A stretch of DNA of 63,305 nt, the filler included, from Licmophora abbreviata (Eukaryota): assembly GCA_900291995.1 (NCBI GenBank). It is 14 parts of 14 records of this genome, joined end to end, with 100 filler letters (N's around TTAATTAATTAA, not from the genome) between each part and the next. Parts side by side here need not be neighbours in the genome. Positions count along the whole stretch, not along the records: positions 10,046 to 13,948 come from OLMU01004139.1; positions 14,049 to 18,585 come from OLMU01004140.1; 12 more parts are not named here. One strand, written 5' to 3'. Shown here piece after piece: positions 11,866-37,197 of this stretch. Every line of letters begins with the position of its first letter. Position 1 is the first letter of the stretch. Made by a program: the position numbers and the translations under genes. Under the pieces are notes generated by a model. It did not search any database and was not told the DNA's origin. It saw only the letters and a list, made by a program, of their open reading frames with translations.

Positions 11866-14800
11866 CTATGATCGTTTACTCTGTTTAAGCATCTCAAACG
11901 CCATACCCCCACTTAGCTCAACACTTTTTTCGTCGGACTCCTCCACATCTTCCAGAGAAGCGCCCGCATCGTCCAGAGACGCTGTACCGTGAGGCTTTCG
12001 GTGCGACAGCTGCAGAATGCGCAAGGAGCGAGCAAGATCCATTTGACTACCGCCTTCCATTAATAGCGTGTAATCGTAGTCTTTGTTGGCCTTTCGCGGA
12101 GTGATTCGCTTCTTCTTTGGCGCAACCTTTCGATCGACAAGCAAGTGCGTTTCCATTTCGCCGATGCCCTTCACGTGTACCACCCCCCTTCGCTCTGTCG
12201 TGAAATCGTTCTTGATCAAATTGACGACACTGGGTGTTATCTGAATCTTGCCCGGGATTCCTGTGCTCTCCATCCTCGACGCTAGGTTGAAACGCAGAAA
12301 AAAATAGAGACGATGAGACATCATTTTCCCCATTCGATTCGTGAGCGCTTCACCTACTACTCACCGAGATTGACCGCGTCTCCCCACAGGTCATATAGGT
12401 ATCGCTTGGTACCAACGACACCGGCAACAACCTCGCCCGAGTTGATTCCGACACGCAGATTCAAGGTACGATCCGGGTGGCGGTCGTTAAAGTTGCGGAG
12501 TGCCTCGATCATGTCGAGCGCAAAATGACACACTGCAGAGCAGTTTGCAGATGCCACTGCATCCTCCTCCGCTTTGGATTCTGGAACGATTGTTGCCATG
12601 TAGCAGTCTCCAATCGTCTTGATCTTTGTGAGCGGATGATACTGCTCAACTAGGTCGTCAAACATACTAAACAGCTCATTTAACATGGATACGACCTCCT
12701 CGGGTTTCATGCTGTTCGACATGGCAGTGAAGCCGACGATATCAGCAAAGAGGATTGTCGCACCCGAGTGGCTCTCTGCAATGTGCGATGGATCGGATTT
12801 CAATTTGGCAGCAATGCGTTCTGGGAGCACATTGAACAACAGCACCTCGGCAGCGGCCTTTTCGATTTCTGCCTGCATGCGTCGCTTCTTGTCGGTCATA
12901 TCCTCTGCGTATATTGCAAAGAATACGGCATTGTCCGGGCCCTCCACTTCAACGGTGTGTAGCGAGACGGGAAAGGACTTGCCTTCCTTGGTGAGTCCTT
13001 CACCCTCCCTCGTCTCGGTCACAGGTACTCCGACCGAGAGAAACGCTTCCATTTCTGCTACGACAGCGTCACCAACCTTCTTGGAGAGCACTTGCTTGAC
13101 AGAACATCCTTTCAGATCGTTAGCTTCCCAGCCGAACTTGTTGACTGCGGCAATGTTGACTCGGACGATGCTACCACTCGAGTCGACGACAAACAACGCA
13201 TCTGGAGATGACTCGATGATTTTACTGGTAAATTGCTCTTTTCTTCGAATTTCAAGCTCATATTGCTTTTGCTTGGTCAAGTCACGGAGAAAGCCCGCGA
13301 ACTGTCGCTTGTCTCCATCTTGAACCTTAACCTCGCAGAGTGCAAGCTCCATGAGAAATTGTGTCCCGTCCTTTCTCATTGCCAAAAGCTCACGTTTCTG
13401 GCCCATGATGTGCGACACACCCGTCTTGAGAAAGCGCTTCAGGTACTCGTCGTGGTGCTGGGCGTGGCCTCCACCGCAAATGATACTAATGTTGCTCCCA
13501 AGAAGTTCGGCCTTGGTCCACCCAAGGTGGCCCTCGGCCGCGTCGTTCACCAGCTCGACAATCCCGTCTTCGTTGATCATCAGTAAGGGGTCTAGAGCTG
13601 TATCAATGATTCCTCGGATGAGATCCTCTCTTCGCTTGCGACCCGATAAGTCGTGCACAACACCACAGAACATCCTGTCCTCTCCTGGATTCGTCTTGAG
13701 CTCCAAAACAGCCAATTCAATCCAAAACTCAGTCCCATCCTTGCGCCGAGCCGGCAACTCTCGGTTCTTTCCAATGACGCGCTTTTCTCCCGTGGCGAGA
13801 TAGTGCTTCATGTAATTGTCGTGATGCTTGGCGTGGTTGCCACCACAAATCACACTAATGTTCTTTCCAACAAGTTCTTGTCGACTCCATCCAAATTTGT
13901 CGACTGCCGCTTGATTGACCATGAGTACCGTTCCATTTTCGTTCACATNNNNNNNNNNNNNNNNNNNNNNNNNNNNNNNNNNNNNNNNNNNNTTAATTAA
14001 TTAANNNNNNNNNNNNNNNNNNNNNNNNNNNNNNNNNNNNNNNNNNNNGTCGACTGCCGCTTGATTGACCATGAGTACCGTTCCATTTTCGTTCACATGA
14101 AACATGGGATCCAAGGACGCCTCCACCATTTCCGCCGCCAGACGTTCCTTTTGCTTGAGAGAGGACAAGTCTCGCACAAAGCCACAGAAGAGCCGTTCGT
14201 CTCCCAGAAACGTGTCACATTCGACCACTCCCAGCTCAATAGGAAACTCCGACCCATCCTTTCGTCTGGCAGGCAGTTCCCGCTTTCGTCCAATTACTCT
14301 CGTTTCTCCGGTCGCCAAGTACCGCTCCAAATACGCGTGGTGTTGCGGCCCATGATTGCCGCCGCAAATCATGCTAATGTTGTTGCCCAAAAACTCAGTT
14401 CGGCTCCAGCCAAATAGTTTCGTGGCAGCAGAATTGACCATTTGAATCGTCCCGTGCTCGTTAATTTGAAAGAGCGGGTCGAGGGAGGCGTCAAAGACGG
14501 CCGATAGTATACTTTCCCGCTGATGGGCGTCCGATGAGACCGTCAGAGTTTCGGTGTCGGTGGGAAGTGCATTGAGACTGCTTCGACGACGCAGGAACTG
14601 CGGCTGTCCTCCGGACGCGACACTTTTCACACTGTCCTGATGATCGCCATGACGAATCCACAAGAGAATCAAGTTGTCATCGTCAAAGAGTGTCAGCTGC
14701 AACGCTCCGGGAAACGACGTGCCATCCAGTTTTCTGCCAGTGATGGTCCACTCGTCCGGGAGCGAGGATGATGATGATTCATCGGATTGATGAATGTAGT

Positions 14801-15056
14801 TTAGCGTTTCCAGCCAGCTCAGACTATCCTTTTCTTCAGCCATGGCTGTCCCCAGTGTCCAAAAGGACAGGGTAGAGTCGACATTCGATCCAACCAAGGA
14901 TGAAGGCCTGTCTGCACCGCCGGAAGTTGACCCAAAGAGGTCATGCGCGGGCTGGTTTGCATACAGAATCTTGTGTTCCGAAGCGTCGACTAGCACTCCG
15001 GCGTCAAACGAATTCTTCAGAACTTTCGTCAGTAATGTCTTTGAGCTGCTCATCAT
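11866..15056 (-). CDS. Soluble multi-PAS class III adenylyl cyclase (5 PAS + cyclase, ~985 aa if the two contigs are merged)
   Basis: Cyclase motifs ATILFADIVGFT, KIKTIGDCYM, LRVGINSGEVVAGVVG, YDLWGDAVNL|ASRMES, with intron 12282..12364. PAS repeats with RxDGxxF. The linker splits the gene, and 13899..13948 is identical to 14049..14098. Confidence 0.92.
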
Positions 15057-15856: not shown

Positions 15857-17157
15857 TGATGATGATGATGATGATGATGAGCAAGCCGCAAGACGGCACG
15901 AACGCTGGATTGACAACCACCCAGGAAGTAAGTGTGCAAGAGAGAAAGTTGTAGACTATTTATACTTTGGACAACTTTGGTTGGTTGTGTTTTGAAGGGC
16001 GGGAAAGCGCACCGACCGCAACTTCTCGTCCAGAGGTGCATGTCGAATCCATTTCATACGCAGTCCCATTTCTCATGTAGAAGCGCAGAACCAAAATGGA
16101 ACAATCGGAAGGATCATGTTTGGTGATGTCAATTAGTTGACCAACCGTCTCTCTAGTATCTAGTACCATTCCGTGCGGCAGCAACAACACATCTATCTGA
16201 GCATCTCTACTCTGTAACGCTAGTCGCCTATTGGCCCTTCTTTTGATCCAACGGTTTTCCCTCATTTGTTGAGATATCGGATACGCCAATCTTTACGATG
16301 GTCGTATTTTTTGTTACTTTCCTTCGCGATCGAGTTGCTTCTCCTCGGTTCCGATTTCCGGTCATTCCTCACCAGAATTCCCCCGCTAGCCTGGCTGGGA
16401 AGCTTCCCGTTCCAACTCGGCATCCAACGCTTCCAGTCGTGCATCTACGCGTCGAAACCTTCTCCGGAAGATTGTCTTGTTGCATGAAGGATGCCGCTGA
16501 CGATCAATGGAGACCCCGTGGTCTCCCGGGCCTGGATCCTGGGGAAGTTGAAAATATGATGCTTTCCGACGAGAATGTCAGTGTGGAAGAGTGCAAGTGT
16601 CAAAGGCATGTTGAAATGACTCAACACGTCATTTCCGAAGATCCTCGTAGAAACAATACCAATCTTGTTTCGCGTGAACCTCCAGTTAGGAGGTCGATGC
16701 ACTTCAGCATTTTGAATGAGCTGGAGTCTTGTTGGACGTTCTGGTTCAATACAAATTTCTGGAGTGAGTTCAAGGAAAAATCTCAACGGCAGGCAATAGT
16801 CCGATTTTATATATGCCCCGACGAGGCGCCATCCGCAACGAGGAATTTTATGATCATTGAGAATCGAAATGTGCCGTTGTTCCAGCTGCCATTCATTTCA
16901 AATACTTATGGATAATATCGCTTCTACCATTTCTGAGACGTTTACACGAATGATCAAACTACAGTTCTTAAAGTTTTAATCTTCAAGATTCATGAGCGGG
17001 CAGCGCAAGGTCCCACAACGGCTTGTCCAAATGTCACAAAATTCAACCCCGCTCTGGATCACACAGCACCGGCGACATTCAATACTCCGGCAGAACGAAC
17101 GTTCCCCTGTGATCTTGTGAAAGACTTTGGGTTTCACAATCAACACGAAGTAAGACC

Positions 17158-18003
17158 ATGAAGCTCTTTGTTTCCATCGGGGCCCTTGCGGTCCTTTGCA
17201 GCACCGTTTCGGCGCAGGACGTCTTGTCTTTCGTCCTGCGCGTTAAGGAAGGTGATGCCATCGACGATTTGTATTGTCCTCTCAACAAAAAAGATCTTGG
17301 AAGTTCAATGGAAGAGTACGTTTTTAATCGTATTGTCGATGGCGTCGAGGAATATGCCAAGGAGGTTGGCGTGCTGGAAAAAGACGTCACGTTGAAGGGC
17401 GGAGAGTTGATCGCAGACAACATTGAAGACGGCCATCGTGTTCTTTTCTCTTACCATCGCAATAATGGTGGCGGAAGCGGTGGTGCTGGAAGTGGGTCGA
17501 GTGGCGATGACGAAGATGACGGCGGCCGTAAGCTGTTTAGGTTCAACTGGAAGCCTCGCAAGTACGGTGGTGGCTCTGGCGGTTCAAACAATGGTGACGA
17601 CAACGATGGCGGCGGCCGTAAACTGTTCAGGTTCACGTGGAAGCCTCGCAACCGCGGTGGTGGCTCTGGTGGTTCAAACAATGGTGACGACAACGATGGC
17701 GGCGGCCGTAACCTGTTCAGGTTCACGTGGAAGCCTCGCAACCGCGGTGGTGGCTCTGGCGGTTCAAACAATGGTGACGACAACGATGGCGGCGGCCGTA
17801 ACCTGTTCAGGTTCACGTGGAAGCCTCGCAACCGCGGTGGTGGCTCTGGAGGTTCAAATAATGGTGACGACAACGATGGCGGCGGACGCATGCTCCAGGA
17901 CATTCAAGACTTTGAGAAGGAGGTCAGCAAGTCGATAACTGAGACGATCAAGAAGGAATGTAAGGGACCCGAGCTAACTGTTGAAGTTTTCATTGACCCT
18001 TAA
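17158..18003 (+). CDS. Secreted multi-peptide precursor with six RXL sites
   Basis: Signal peptide MKLFVSIGALAVLCSTVSA, then five 30-aa units delimited by RVL/RKL/RKL/RNL/RNL/RML. Confidence 0.9.
   Translation: MKLFVSIGALAVLCSTVSAQDVLSFVLRVKEGDAIDDLYCPLNKKDLGSSMEEYVFNRIVDGVEEYAKEVGVLEKDVTLKGGELIADNIEDGHRVLFSYHRNNGGGSGGAGSGSSGDDEDDGGRKLFRFNWKPRKYGGGSGGSNNGDDNDGGGRKLFRFTWKPRNRGGGSGGSNNGDDNDGGGRNLFRFTWKPRNRGGGSGGSNNGDDNDGGGRNLFRFTWKPRNRGGGSGGSNNGDDNDGGGRMLQDIQDFEKEVSKSITETIKKECKGPELTVEVFIDP
17437..17895 (+). repeat. In-frame 90-bp tandem repeat (1 diverged + 4 near-identical units)
   Basis: Units start at 17437, 17527, 17617, 17707 and 17797. The last four encode RxLFRF[NT]WKPRxxGGGSGGSNNGDDNDGGG. 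Confidence 0.97.
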
Positions 18004-25476: not shown

Positions 25477-26322
25477 TAAAAACACTATGGGTCGTGCGTA
25501 CGGATTGGTATTTTGTGTTTGCGTACTTTTTTTGGTTTGTTCGGAGTGTGTGTGGCTTTCTGCATGCCGAGTTTGGCGTCTTTTAAATAGTGCAAGTCGT
25601 GAAGTGCAAACTACGCTGCTTTTATCAGTATCTGCCTAAGAACTAGCTACTGAAAGTTTATTTGAGAACTAGGAAGCCCCCCTCAAAGAAAACCTGCAAT
25701 GGACTCACTCGGCAAAAGCAAACTCGAGTTCTGAAATTCATTCTAGCCTTATGCTCAGAATCCCGCTTTCCTTTCCGCACTGGATGCTGCAGAAGCTCAT
25801 TCACTTTTTCTCTAGTTGTGGGGTCGTGAACTCGCACGCTTTACAGCTGCTATCATCATGTATCATGCTACTGTACCAACCAAGGTGTTGGGACGAACAG
25901 ATCGCTTCTTAATTGGCTCATGACTACTTCGAAACTCTCATCCGACAAGGTCGAGCCCTTCTTCGCGCGATGAGAGCGTGTGTGGGAACGCGCAGCGTTG
26001 AAAACTAAACTGGAACCACGCTCTGCATACCTTACGTATAGATGTGTCATGATGACCATGGTGTAGACGACGTCAGCAGTCTAGAGTAGTGCTGACGGAG
26101 AATTCATTGTCCATTAGATAATGCAAGTCGAAACGGTGATATGTTGGCCCATGATGGCATGAGTAAACACGCAGAATAATGGAGACTGGAAAGCCTTGGC
26201 GACGGCGCCCTCCAAGTACCGGCGACGGAGGATCCCTCTCCATCACGGCGGATTTACAAAGCACTTCTGTCCGACCTTCATCGTTAGTCGGGACAGACCT
26301 TGATATCCGCAGCGATTGCAGG

Positions 26323-27269
26323 ATGAAAAGAGTTTTTCGTACTCTCAACCAGAGGGGTCGAGGCGCTGTGATTGTCACGAGTCTCCTGCTTGCAGTTTCT
26401 GTCGTGGTAACTCGTGCGCGTCTGCTCTCGTTCATTGGGATTTCCATTCCTGATAGCCCTGTGGAGCGATTGGACACAATTACACTTTTCAACGAGACGC
26501 AGTGTTCCAGAAACGATTTCGACTGTGTTTCTGCCAAGATTCCCGTCCACCCCAATGCTCACGGGTGCAACAGCTTTGTCTTTTCGTCTCACCACAAGAC
26601 TGGACACACACTATCACTACAGATCTTGAGAGGCATGTGCCCCCAACCCAAGGATCGAGTACGCATTGCACTCCATGGATATAAAACGCATACGAAATTT
26701 CAGCCGCTAGGATTCCTGCGCAAAGCCAAACCAAGTCAGTATGTCAAAGGCAAGCCGTTCGTTCACTTTATTCGAGACCCCTTGGAGACAGTCGTTTCGG
26801 CGTATCAGTACCATCTTGTGAGCGACGAAAAGTGGTTGCGGAGATCAGGCTATCAAGAGAGATTACGGAACGCGACTGTCGATGACGGTGTGGAGATGGA
26901 GTTTCACAGATCGGTGAATGACGCGATCAACAAGGCAGTCAAAATGCACGAGTTCTTACGACAACCGAGTGTACAGCAGATGGGTTTACAGTTCGAATGG
27001 AGCAGCTACGAGACGAGTTTGAGTTCCGGGCAACCGTGTACGCCTTAGAAAAGTGGCTTCGTATGCCGGGTCATATGTCTTGGGAGCTGCTTCAAAAATG
27101 TTGCTATGTTTCCAGTTCCGTGCGAGAGGAAGGCCAAAACCATGTCAGCAAGGTCGACGAGAAGGATGAACTTCGGAAAAAAGTCATGTCGCAACATGGA
27201 GACGCGATACGAGACGCCCGGCGTCGGCTTGGATTCCCACAGGTTGGATTAGAGATTCTGAAACAATGA
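26323..27269 (+). CDS. Sulfotransferase-like type II membrane protein, paralog A (frameshift ~26975)
   Basis: TM anchor, SSHHKTGH (PSB-like loop) and VHFIRDPLETVVSAYQYH (3'-PB-like). GTACAGCAGAT versus the paralog's GTACAAGCAGAT shows one missing A. Confidence 0.78.
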
Positions 27270-27734
27270 ACGATGCTCGCTCTCGATATTAACCTACGAA
27301 GAATGCTCTCGGTAGCTACCGTGTGGCGTTGCCGACCCCTTTCAGCTGCTCTGCCGTTTTGGCTCTCCAATCTTGTAAGTGGCGTGCAGCTTATCTAACG
27401 AGCCGTCTAATTTCTAGTCTAATCTAACTGTCAGCGCTGGAACCATCATCGATCGCATGCATCGAACCACCCCTACTGAACCAGGAGGTATGATGACTAT
27501 CGTATAGTCTACCAGTACAGTGTACCGGTTTCGCTCAAGCACGCGCTCTGTGCATGATGTGCGCGATGTTGAATGAGAAAAAAATTAAAAATAGCGCGCC
27601 TTCGATGTTTCCGCCTGTCCCAAAAATGCTGAACATGTGAATTTGTCCATGCGCATTGTCTTTCAACTTTCGCAATGCATGTAGTCGATCCACACTTTCC
27701 TCTCTTCGGTCTTCCAGAGTAGTCACTAGTAAAG

Positions 27735-28703
27735 ATGCCCCTATCGACCATGTTACGCCAAAAACACGGTTTTGTCGTTCTGACCCTCCTCGTTTTGTGG
27801 GTCCTCTTCATGTATGCACCGCAACGCCGCGGTTCCAAACTAGATCAACGCTCTCCTGAACTGAGGAGTGCTTTCTCGAGCCATTCACTTGACTCGCTGG
27901 ACACAATTACACTTTTCAACGAGACGCAGTGTTCCAGAAACGATTTCGACTGTATTTCTGCCAAGGTTCCCGTCCACCCCCACTCGAACGGGTGCAACAG
28001 CTTTGTCTTTTCGTCGCACCACAAGACTGGACACACACTATCACTACAGATCTTGAGAGGAATGTGCGCCAGTCCAGTTGATCGAGCACAGATTCAATTG
28101 TATGGCTACGGAGGGCATGTAATTTCCAAGCCGCCCGGGTTCCTGCGCAAAGCCAACCCAAGTCAGTATGTCAAAGGCAAGCCGTTTGTTCACTTTATTC
28201 GAGACCCCCTGGAGACAGTCGTATCTGGCTATCAATACCATCTTGTGAGCAACGAAAAGTGGTTGCGGAGATCAGGCTATCAAGAGAGATTACGAAACGC
28301 GACTGTCGATGACGGTGTGGAAATGGAGTTTCAGCGGGCGATGGCGGACCCGCTGCGCCAGGCAGTGACGATGCACGAGTTCTTACGACAAACGAGTGTA
28401 CAAGCAGATGGGTTTACAGTTCGAATGGAGCAGCTACGAGACGAGTTTGAGTTCCGGGCAACCGTATACGCCTTGGAAAAGTGGCTTCGTATGCCGGGTC
28501 ATATGTCTTGGGAGCTGCTTCAGCAGTGCTGCTACGTTCCTGGCTCTGCACGAGAGGAAGGCCAAAAGCATGTCAGCAAGGTCGACGAGAAGGATGAACT
28601 TCGGCAAAAAGTCATGTCGCAACATGGGGACCAGATACGGGAGACCAGGCGTCTGCTTGGTTTCCCCCTGGTGGGACTAGAGATGCAGAAGGAACGTGCA
28701 TAG
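27735..28703 (+). CDS. Sulfotransferase-like type II membrane protein, paralog B
   Basis: Intact 322-aa ORF and tandem duplicate of paralog A with the same motifs. Confidence 0.82.
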   Translation: MPLSTMLRQKHGFVVLTLLVLWVLFMYAPQRRGSKLDQRSPELRSAFSSHSLDSLDTITLFNETQCSRNDFDCISAKVPVHPHSNGCNSFVFSSHHKTGHTLSLQILRGMCASPVDRAQIQLYGYGGHVISKPPGFLRKANPSQYVKGKPFVHFIRDPLETVVSGYQYHLVSNEKWLRRSGYQERLRNATVDDGVEMEFQRAMADPLRQAVTMHEFLRQTSVQADGFTVRMEQLRDEFEFRATVYALEKWLRMPGHMSWELLQQCCYVPGSAREEGQKHVSKVDEKDELRQKVMSQHGDQIRETRRLLGFPLVGLEMQKERA

Positions 28704-35694: not shown

Positions 35695-36750
35695 TTATCT
35701 TGCCTTTTCTAGTCCTACGAGTGGGAATCCGAGGCGCCGCCGGGCCTCTCGTATCTCATCCCCATGTCGTAACATGACTGTTTGTCTGAGCTTGATCTTT
35801 TCTTCTACCTTGCTAATGTGCTTATGTCCTTCCTCCCGCGTCGCCGGGGGGACATAGCAACACTGCTGCAGAACGTGCCAAGACAAATGGTGCCCCCTAC
35901 CCAGCCACTTTTCCAATGCATAGATCGTGGCTCGAAATGGAAATTCCTCCCGTACTTGTTCCATGCGAACCGTAAAGGCATCCGCTCGGATTTGGGGTTG
36001 TTGTAAAAAGTCATACATGGTAATCATTTGCCCAATCACCTTTGTCATGGACCTCTGAAACTCCAGTTCCACACCTTCGTCGATGCTTGCATTGCGTAAA
36101 CTTTCTTGATATCCAGACCTTCGCAACCATTTCTCGGTACTCACAAGATGGTACTGATAGCCGGATACGATGGTCTCGAGAGGATCTCGGATAAAGTGAA
36201 CAAAGGGCGTGTGGTTGACATACTGACTGGGGTTGGCCTTCTTTCGAAAGCCTGCGGGTTTGTACTTGACACTTCCCTCACGGTATCCGATGCGTTGTAT
36301 TTGCAAGCGATCTTTGGGATCGGGACACATGGCTCGTAGGATCTGCAGTGACAGCGTATGTCCCGTCTTGTGGTGCGAGGAAAAGACAAAGGAGTTGCAA
36401 CCGGAGGATGGAGAGTTGTGTACGGGAACCCTGGATTCTGCAATGCAGTCGACGTACTGTTGATGGAAGGGACAATGTGTGTTTTGAAAGAGTGTTTGCG
36501 TATCCAATGATGATAGTGACGACGATGTGTGATTGGTGTAGACGCTTTGGAACCACTCGTCGTTGCCATGAGTCTTTCTGTAAGGCAGAAGGATGGATGC
36601 AAGTGGTCTCATCGGCCGAAGGCTACTCACGACGATGAGACTCGTCAGCACGATGATTACTGCGACGACGACATGCCAGCGGCGATGAGTGTGTCGATGC
36701 TGCTGGTGTTGGTCTTCTTGGATCATCGTTCTCGTCGTCGTCGTCGTCAT
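35695..36750 (-). CDS. Sulfotransferase-like type II membrane protein, paralog C (inverted)
   Basis: Shares GCNSFVFSSHHKTGHTLSLQILR and PFVHFIRDPLET.VS.YQYHLVS with paralogs A and B. Confidence 0.82.
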   Translation of the reverse strand: MTTTTTRTMIQEDQHQQHRHTHRRWHVVVAVIIVLTSLIVVSSLRPMRPLASILLPYRKTHGNDEWFQSVYTNHTSSSLSSLDTQTLFQNTHCPFHQQYVDCIAESRVPVHNSPSSGCNSFVFSSHHKTGHTLSLQILRAMCPDPKDRLQIQRIGYREGSVKYKPAGFRKKANPSQYVNHTPFVHFIRDPLETIVSGYQYHLVSTEKWLRRSGYQESLRNASIDEGVELEFQRSMTKVIGQMITMYDFLQQPQIRADAFTVRMEQVREEFPFRATIYALEKWLGRGHHLSWHVLQQCCYVPPATREEGHKHISKVEEKIKLRQTVMLRHGDEIREARRRLGFPLVGLEKAR

Positions 36751-37197
36751 TGTCAGGAGTTTTGTGTGCTTTTCGCCGTACAAGGTTCGATCGTATCACT
36801 GCAATCCATCCAGACAGATGGGCTCATCTTCGTAGGAAAGCGTAGGAATCACACACAACCAGGTCTTCTCTCTCTCTCTCTTACTATAGTGCCGTACCGT
36901 ATGGCAGTCTTGCAATAGGAATAGATGACGATGACGTGAGGCCGCCGCAATCTGCCATCGCGGCTCGTCGTCGTCGCATCAAATTTGGAATTGAGAAAAT
37001 TCCAAAATTCAAAATTCAAGGCACATTGTGTTTGCGACAGCGGACAGACGTCGACAATAAGAGGATGACACGACTTTTTGAACGAGATGCTGTGAAAAAG
37101 ACGAGACATCAACACGGATCTGTTCGTCCTATGTTCATCATTACTCTCTCTCTCTCCGAACCCGCCTCCGCGCGAAAGACTTCCTCCTTCACCAATC

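Follow-up and report, generated by a model that had tools for sequence, protein, structure and literature searches.

The 63,305-nucleotide stretch of Licmophora abbreviata DNA analyzed here (assembly GCA_900291995.1; hereafter the window) encodes on its minus strand a protein in which five PAS domains precede a single adenylyl cyclase domain. On balance, we favor the view that the host is a pennate-type diatom and that the protein is a class IIIa adenylyl cyclase, working in the cytosol as a homodimer, whose activity would be regulated by oxygen (O2) bound to heme in three of the PAS domains. The sequence of the protein, its fold, the register of its residues with those of the heme sensor FixL, and their conservation in the family are established here. 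The gene runs from a start codon at position 15056 to a stop codon that ends at 11866, the limits given in the original prediction, which did not mention that this span crosses an assembly gap at 13949-14048. Once a duplicate at the gap is removed and one intron is spliced out, the predicted protein has 985 amino acids and a single terminal stop, with the following features:

14049..15056, minus strand: part of exon 1 on the first contig (residues 1-336), with the initiator Met shortly ahead of PAS1
14628..15044, minus strand: PAS1 (residues ~5-143), divergent, without a heme His; HH probability 97%, E 4e-11, AlphaFold2 fold
14163..14510, minus strand: PAS2 (residues 183-298) with His239 (codon 14342), Arg245, and Arg259 (codon 14282)
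13644..14141, minus strand: PAS3 (residues 306-421) with His362 and Arg382, spanning the assembly gap; match to FixL 1d06, E 5e-21
13899..14098, no strand: assembly gap, with an N spacer at 13949-14048 and 13899-13948 duplicated as 14049-14098; an artifact, apparently with no sequence lost
13275..13622, minus strand: PAS4 (residues 429-544) with His485, Arg491, and Arg505; match to FixL 1dp6, E 5.9e-21
12894..13232, minus strand: PAS5 (residues 559-671) with Val615 in place of the His and Arg633 kept
12798..12893, minus strand: signaling helix and cyclase-transducing element (residues ~672-703), helical in the model and aligned with the AC9 element
12365..12767, minus strand: class IIIa cyclase core, exon 1 part, with Asp722, Asp767, Lys763, Asp839, and Asn846; PF00211, E 1.9e-38
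12282..12364, minus strand: intron, 83 nt, GT-AG, phase 1
11866..12281, minus strand: exon 2 with Arg850, the rest of the cyclase (to residue ~897), and a tail of ~90 residues; PF00211, E 1.2e-11

The PAS domains fill the whole region preceding the cyclase, and their number was given correctly in the original prediction: PAS2-5 are recognized by Pfam, and PAS1, missed both by Pfam and by the phmmer sequence search of PDB, is identified by its HH probability and its AlphaFold2 secondary structure. The three FixL-type motifs quoted there were found at residues 238, 360/361, and 483, and the proximal His and distal Arg are present in all three of PAS2-4 (His239/Arg259, His362/Arg382, and His485/Arg505). 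The best PDB sequence matches of these domains are FixL first and DosP next (for PAS2, FixL 1d06 with E 5.4e-22). The AlphaFold2 model of PAS2 overlays the O2-bound FixL structure 1dp6 with Z 16.9 and a root mean square deviation of 1.2 Å over 116 residues, at an offset of 39 with the sole gap later in the domain, placing His239, Arg245, and Arg259 on His200, Arg206, and Arg220 of FixL; the distal-Arg column of the alignment was anchored by the FixL R220A structure 1y28. FixL heme domains also matched a second model with a target TM of 0.93-0.94 in Foldseek. FixL positions 215, 236, and 238, which we take to form the hydrophobic distal triad, are filled by V/L/V, V/L/V, and I/L/L in PAS2, PAS3, and PAS4, respectively. 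We consider it quite likely that these three domains bind heme. PAS1 and PAS5 had been said to lack both key residues; both are indeed His-less, but PAS5 keeps the distal Arg633, where a paralog on contig C4138 has Lys. PAS5 is likely a dimerization and relay domain.

Conservation was assessed in 336 PAS domains; these came from 109 cluster representatives, chosen as diatom-type by their rank, and five domains were dropped for gaps. The distal Arg is kept in 299 of the 305 His-bearing domains versus 9 of the 26 His-less ones, and these counts become 284/290 and 9/24 when five proteins outside the diatom clade are omitted. In named diatoms (19 proteins), the Arg accompanies the His in 59 of 61 domains. 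The corresponding fractions are 37/98 in a bacterial comparison set of 80 loci (129 domains, 6 dropped) and 105/279 among other matches (480 domains, 21 dropped). Over the 305 domains, His, Tyr, Gly, and Arg are found at 95-100%, neighboring positions drift, and the two positions preceding the Arg vary freely; an additional His, one turn before the ligand His, is conserved in 72% of the family. The loss of Arg where His has been lost is a more telling control than the raw counts. Covalent attachment of heme through the Cys of the ICGG motif was considered and rejected, since Cys occupies this position in 23% of the 305 domains, Val or Met being commoner. According to the accessible text of a DosP structure paper (PMC11543664), the distal Arg is required for significant binding of O2 but not of carbon monoxide (CO) or nitric oxide (NO); the family-wide conservation of this residue thus strengthens O2 over NO or CO as the ligand.

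The best matches of the cyclase domain are AC9, AC8, AC5, and Rv1625c, other bacterial cyclases being weak. By alignment to AC9, D722 and D767 are the metal-binding, K763 and D839 the adenine-binding, and N846 and R850 the transition-state residues. The KIKTIGD and YDLWGD motifs, N846/R850, and both metal Asp noted in the original prediction are present after splicing, and its choice of an adenylyl over a guanylyl cyclase agrees with the sequence, which has all six adenylyl-type residues; the domain is very likely active on ATP. It also has the FxxFD dimer motif (F746-D750) and a 14-residue arm, which we take as criteria of class IIIa. Because one catalytic domain holds all six residues, a homodimer is predicted, and the protein has no membrane segment (highest 19-residue hydropathy 1.46); the cytosolic homodimer foreseen earlier is thus supported. 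No signal or transit peptide is apparent at the N-terminus. The name 'soluble adenylyl cyclase' used in that prediction is not to be taken as the bicarbonate-activated sAC class, the active site being that of class IIIa: bicarbonate-responsive cyclases (sAC/CyaC, class IIIb) have Thr or Ser at the adenine-selecting position, and with Asp at 839 the protein is not of the bicarbonate-activated type. Pfam detected only PAS and PF00211 in the protein, with no histidine kinase output, globin, or H-NOX domain; since the kinase output is missing, it is not a FixL protein. In the family, 44 of the 61 cyclases are fully covered (17 are incomplete), and all 44 have the six residues, the equivalent of Asp839 among them; a guanylyl Glu at the Lys position was found in none of the family cyclases examined. 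With this record, the database label 'guanylate cyclase' on some relatives is probably wrong.

Between one and nine His+Arg domains were detected in 55 of the 61 cyclase-bearing members, and in many of these a His+Arg domain stands directly against the helix. The distance from the last PAS domain to the transducing element is 20 residues in 45 of the 54 members measured, a spacing consistent with signal relay through a coiled helix. A prediction with two copies of the PAS4-PAS5-helix segment and heme (heme unscored) gave a dimer at 0.53, versus 0.00 for the best control, with pLDDT of at least 81 and contact agreement between runs of at least 75%; its tightest contacts involve the N-terminal helix and the sheet of PAS5. 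The mark used was reached by 20/30 solved microbial homodimers and 1/23 single chains (17/29 and 0/30 for eukaryotes) and by only 1/7 proteins without an older solved relative, so the pass may reflect memory of FixL or DosP. The modeled dimer is therefore a likeness to the solved tandem PAS dimers of FixL and DosP, and not a measure of binding.

A phylogeny of the PAS domains against bacterial ones, the comparison suggested with the original prediction, separates the window, paralog, and named diatom domains from 45/45 bacterial domains (SH-aLRT 98; quick unrooted tree of 125 domains and 114 columns). In a quick unrooted tree of 61 cyclases, the window sequence and 9/9 named diatom sequences form one group (SH-aLRT 98). 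As neither tree is rooted, we claim no donor. Recent transfer or contamination from bacteria was ruled out, the best bacterial match being 45% identical and the trees separating the two sets. The named relatives come from Cyclotella cryptica, C. cf. meneghiniana, Conticribra weissflogii, Skeletonema marinoi, Stephanodiscus, Attheya, Striatella, Seminavis, Amphora, and Entomoneis; Phaeodactylum is not named among the 360 matches listed. The ESM Atlas returned only PAS-cyclase clusters, one of them mostly diatom. The algal host of the original prediction is thus a diatom, and the identity of PAS2 to a Seminavis protein, up to 78%, indicates a pennate one.

On these grounds, the following mechanism may be outlined. 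In each of PAS2, PAS3, and PAS4, the F-helix His would ligate a b-type heme, and the distal Arg would stabilize the O2 bound to it, as happens in FixL and DosP. Two chains would pack as a parallel stack of PAS dimers, and a change in the heme domains would be passed by the His-less PAS5 and the fixed-length helix to the cyclase dimer, setting its rate; several hemes in series could widen or steepen the response. We infer both the gas sensed and the direction of control. By analogy with FixL, there is a slight lean toward inhibition of the cyclase by O2, because this would match the repression of carbon-concentrating genes by cyclic AMP (cAMP). In the light, high O2 would then bring cAMP down and relieve the repression that cAMP exerts on the carbon-concentrating and photorespiration genes; hypoxia in the dark or in sediments would raise cAMP. 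Contrary to this lean, DosP and the Leishmania cyclase HemAC-Lm are both switched on by O2.

A similar diatom gene is already in print. Smith et al. (2016; PMC5067629) merged three gene models of Thalassiosira pseudonana into a cytosolic 'PAS-cyclase', Thaps3_5951 / g5760, co-expressed with carbon-concentrating and photorespiration genes; in the accessible text of their paper these genes are described as repressed by cAMP, and the cyclases setting diatom cAMP are stated to be unknown. As described there, the gene is, like ours, about 3 kb long, with several PAS domains, a cyclase, and a predicted cytosolic product. Relatives of the window gene occur in Cyclotella, Skeletonema, and Conticribra, and Thaps3_5951, which is not named among the matches listed, is likely its putative ortholog. 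The tie to the carbon-concentrating mechanism made in the original prediction would come from this single co-expression report. The words 'heme', 'haem', and 'FixL' are absent from the accessible main text of PMC5067629, and 'FixL' from its supplement text.

Several points weigh against O2 control. The T. pseudonana gene is a putative ortholog, and the accessible text of PMC5067629 proposes CO2 signaling, not O2. In the PAS tree, the window PAS2, PAS3, and PAS4 have as their closest relatives the domains at the corresponding positions of cyclase-less proteins from Seminavis and Entomoneis, so the hemes may serve a separate function. Of the 109 family proteins, 48 have no detected cyclase, many of them fragments; conversely, no His+Arg domain was detected in 6 of the 61 cyclase-bearing members, and the single PAS domain detected in an 821-residue Entomoneis member is His-less. 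In the window gene itself, the domain adjoining the cyclase is the His-less PAS5. The conservation counts are not independent, given the common ancestry of the domains and the His+Arg query used to collect them. Finally, the assignment of O2 control is drawn from sequence and models.

An alternative in which the domains bind heme and control the cyclase, with NO, CO, heme redox state, or heme supply as the signal, appears unlikely. Diatoms use NO signaling, according to work cited in the accessible part of PMC3727952, FixL structures with bound NO, CO, and cyanide exist, and both CO and NO are able to switch DosP on, as the accessible text of PMC11543664 reports; yet the Arg needed specifically for O2 is retained in 299/305 His-bearing domains, and the window protein contains neither an H-NOX nor a globin domain.

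It is rather improbable that the heme arrays bind O2 merely as a store, buffer, or scaffold, with the cyclase taking its input from elsewhere (for example, from inorganic carbon, a partner protein, or a ligand of PAS1 or PAS5). According to the PAS tree, Conticribra, Seminavis, and others expanded their arrays independently, to 7-9 copies; cyclase-less arrays are conserved, with two in this assembly; and the accessible text on the published Thalassiosira gene connects it with low CO2. Such a role is harder to reconcile with the many members in which a His+Arg domain abuts the helix at a fixed distance, and a signaling enzyme would usually be too scarce to store gas. Inorganic carbon as the input is opposed by Asp839, a class IIIa residue, where bicarbonate-responsive cyclases are Thr/Ser.

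Very unlikely, in our estimate, is that the FixL motifs are relics and the domains heme-free spacers or receptors of another ligand. In the same PAS cluster about 40% of domains are His-less, and human PASK has lost the heme binding of this cluster (PMC10468136, accessible text), while PAS5 of the window protein has itself lost the His; against this stand the near-invariance of His, Tyr, Gly, and Arg over the 305 domains and the decay of Arg where His is lost.

The integrity of the gene was examined at the gap and at the intron. Two open frames abut the 100-base N spacer, whose flanks share an exact 50-bp overlap, and deletion of the duplicated 50 bp joins both in frame. This is the only one of the 13 gaps in the window with any overlap, and the 50-mer is present at the two flank sites only. 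At the DNA level, the three PAS repeats are 57-63% identical to one another, and their longest exact run is 9 nt. A neighboring repeat is therefore not the origin of the overlap, and collapse of a repeat is unlikely. In the C4138 paralog, which is 67% identical over residues 132-850, the sequence continues uninterrupted through the junction, and alignment with an outside homolog is in one piece over residues 9-911 at 48% identity; together with the flank overlap, these rule out a further PAS domain hidden in the gap. The homolog consensus begins at the same place as the window protein. The intron interrupts codon 848 and has the same position in the paralog. Short contigs at least 99% identical to the gene were found in 4/4 DNA runs from three studies, one of them crossing the intron without any difference (lengths 151-251 bp, depth 2-5, coverage stopping short of the gap); no RNA dataset was listed as containing the gene. 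That the architecture is an assembly artifact, a bacterial contaminant, or a dead gene, as the N-gap inside the gene and the bacterial contigs C1107 and C2196 of this assembly might suggest, is hardly credible given the exact in-frame overlap, the spliceosomal intron common to the paralog, the eukaryotic neighbors, the clustering of the cyclase with 9/9 named diatoms and the separation of the PAS domains from 45/45 bacterial ones (both SH-aLRT 98), and the matching contigs in 4/4 runs, one across the intron. Within 800 bp upstream there is one match to what we presume to be the hexamers of the CO2-cAMP element, to which we give no weight.

The genes neighboring the cyclase in the window are eukaryotic (ABC-F, sulfotransferase, PTEN-like, and fasciclin). 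The assembly contains three PAS-cyclases (the window gene, C4138, and C5639) and two heme-type PAS genes with no cyclase detected next to them (C2665 and C3597); C3597 and C2665 (L017, L018), like the heme-type PAS proteins P0018 and P0034, in which no cyclase was found either, are possible trans-acting regulators or O2 buffers. The C4138 paralog (L016) has the domain order of the window gene, and its 5' part changes frame. Its contig, outside the window, is numbered next to the window contig C4139 and may carry a tandem copy; it could also belong to a co-binned species. Two adjacent locus tags of Cyclotella cryptica belong to the PAS-cyclase family. The bacterial-looking contigs C1107 and C2196 (L020, L021), the former with a histidine kinase gene, represent contamination within the eukaryotic assembly. 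Elsewhere in the window, an open reading frame at 17113-18003 (plus strand) contains several near-identical 90-bp repeats rich in Gly, Asn, and Asp and has no Pfam match; each repeat ends in a basic aromatic motif. Three related open reading frames, also without a Pfam match, lie at 26167-28703 (plus strand) and 35695-36795 (minus strand); two of them are in tandem with 87% DNA identity, and the third is ~70% identical.

Domains of this type also occur in other protein contexts. Odontella aurita P0319, and also P0330 and P0336, are ion-channel proteins of ~1200 residues with one His+Arg PAS domain, 58-62% identical to PAS2, and Pfam Ion_trans (YVC1-type in precomputed domains); of the channel PAS domains, the two included in the tree belong to the diatom PAS group. 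This type of protein is a candidate O2-gated TRP-like channel. Outside the diatom group, His+Arg PAS domains are combined with a cyclase in membrane proteins of Phalansterium and in several soluble proteins. The former, P0206 and P0219 of the amoebozoan Phalansterium solitarium, are TmcB-type proteins with one His+Arg PAS domain and an intact adenylyl cyclase; the latter (P0162, P0062, P0053, P0077, and P0049) have up to nine such domains, lie outside the diatom cyclase clade, and in two cases end in a hydrophobic tail. A family of ~3400-residue membrane proteins (P0400-P0434 and others; P0400 is from Artemidia motanka) has ~12 predicted membrane segments, in some members TmcB TPR repeats, and 13 tandem His-bearing PAS domains at the end; no enzyme domain was found in it. 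In P0178, which may be a read-through or chimeric transcript, three His+Arg PAS domains are joined to a MoaE domain. Two Acidimicrobiia genes encode a His-bearing PAS domain without the Arg ahead of a distant cyclase.

Taken together, the cyclase arrays, the free arrays, and the TRP-like channel tentatively suggest that diatoms possess a direct O2 receptor system built on the FixL-type heme domain. Under the same tentative reading, the cAMP repressing carbon-concentrating and photorespiration genes would come from this cyclase. The known 'CO2-cAMP' switch would respond in part to O2, a competing Rubisco substrate, and would also signal hypoxia in sediments and biofilms. A major group of primary producers would then have an O2 receptor, O2 would be added to the control of the carbon-concentrating mechanism, and the family would offer a natural series of one to nine hemes showing how repeated sensor domains shape a response. 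The accessible text of a 2026 preprint calls the strategies behind diatom survival under anoxia poorly understood, and does not contain the words 'sensor', 'PAS', or 'cyclase'. The heme reading makes both O2 sensing and a regulatory cAMP source in diatoms directly testable: the family provides soluble, readily expressed candidates, in which point mutants would separate heme binding, O2 binding, and catalysis.

The claim of novelty made in the original prediction stands in part: the heme reading appears unreported, but the diatom PAS-cyclase was glimpsed in 2016 (PMC5067629), HemAC-Lm was known in a eukaryote, and the parts are familiar. Cyclase-less relatives, the Seminavis protein among them, already bear the automatic label 'Sensor protein FixL', which lowers the novelty. 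A literature search that was thin on subscription papers turned up no report connecting a diatom cyclase with FixL or heme, and term searches of PMC4496561, PMC3634410, PMC13737086, PMC2677595, PMC3820574, and PMC12755159 returned nothing on the diatom PAS-cyclase family.

Comparison with known systems shows that the protein is, by its sequence, not a FixL, a soluble guanylyl cyclase (sGC), or an sAC. With FixL of Bradyrhizobium and Sinorhizobium it shares the sensor fold, the proximal His, the distal Arg, and the hydrophobic distal pocket, all in register, as well as the proximal Arg in two of the three copies; in structure 8js5 a non-heme PAS domain likewise stands beside heme PAS domains. 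FixL differs in being bacterial, with a kinase output and one heme domain, whereas the window protein is a eukaryotic cyclase with three heme-type domains, and the extra conserved His one turn before the ligand belongs to the diatom family. Chlamydomonas FXL proteins (Murthy et al., 2012) are eukaryotic FixL-like PAS proteins that reportedly bind heme and O2; they are described as membrane proteins without a characterized output. The TmcB-type membrane proteins with His+Arg PAS domains in Phalansterium and Artemidia fall outside the diatom PAS group in the rows tested. The class IIIa cyclases (mammalian AC9, AC8, and AC5, and Rv1625c) share the helix and transducing element before the core; the window protein differs in having no membrane anchor and in holding all six residues in one catalytic domain. 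The PAS-helix-cyclase layout is also similar to that of NO-sensitive sGC, the H-NOX domain excepted. DosP (EcDOS), the top Foldseek match for PAS3-cyclase, has the same order of heme PAS domain, second PAS domain, helix, and dimeric nucleotide-signaling enzyme; it breaks down cyclic di-GMP, while the window protein is a predicted producer of cAMP. In place of the Met ligand of DosP, Lys or Asn stands just before the Arg in the G strand, which makes a five-coordinate, FixL-like heme likelier than a Met-ligated one. Eukaryotic O2-regulated cyclases are already known: HemAC-Lm of Leishmania major, as the accessible text of PMC4534343 describes it, is a soluble heme protein with a globin sensor that produces cAMP in response to O2 and matters under hypoxia. 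The FixL-type version differs in its sensor, which has an unrelated fold and is repeated; by analogy, the window protein most likely works like HemAC-Lm or DosP.

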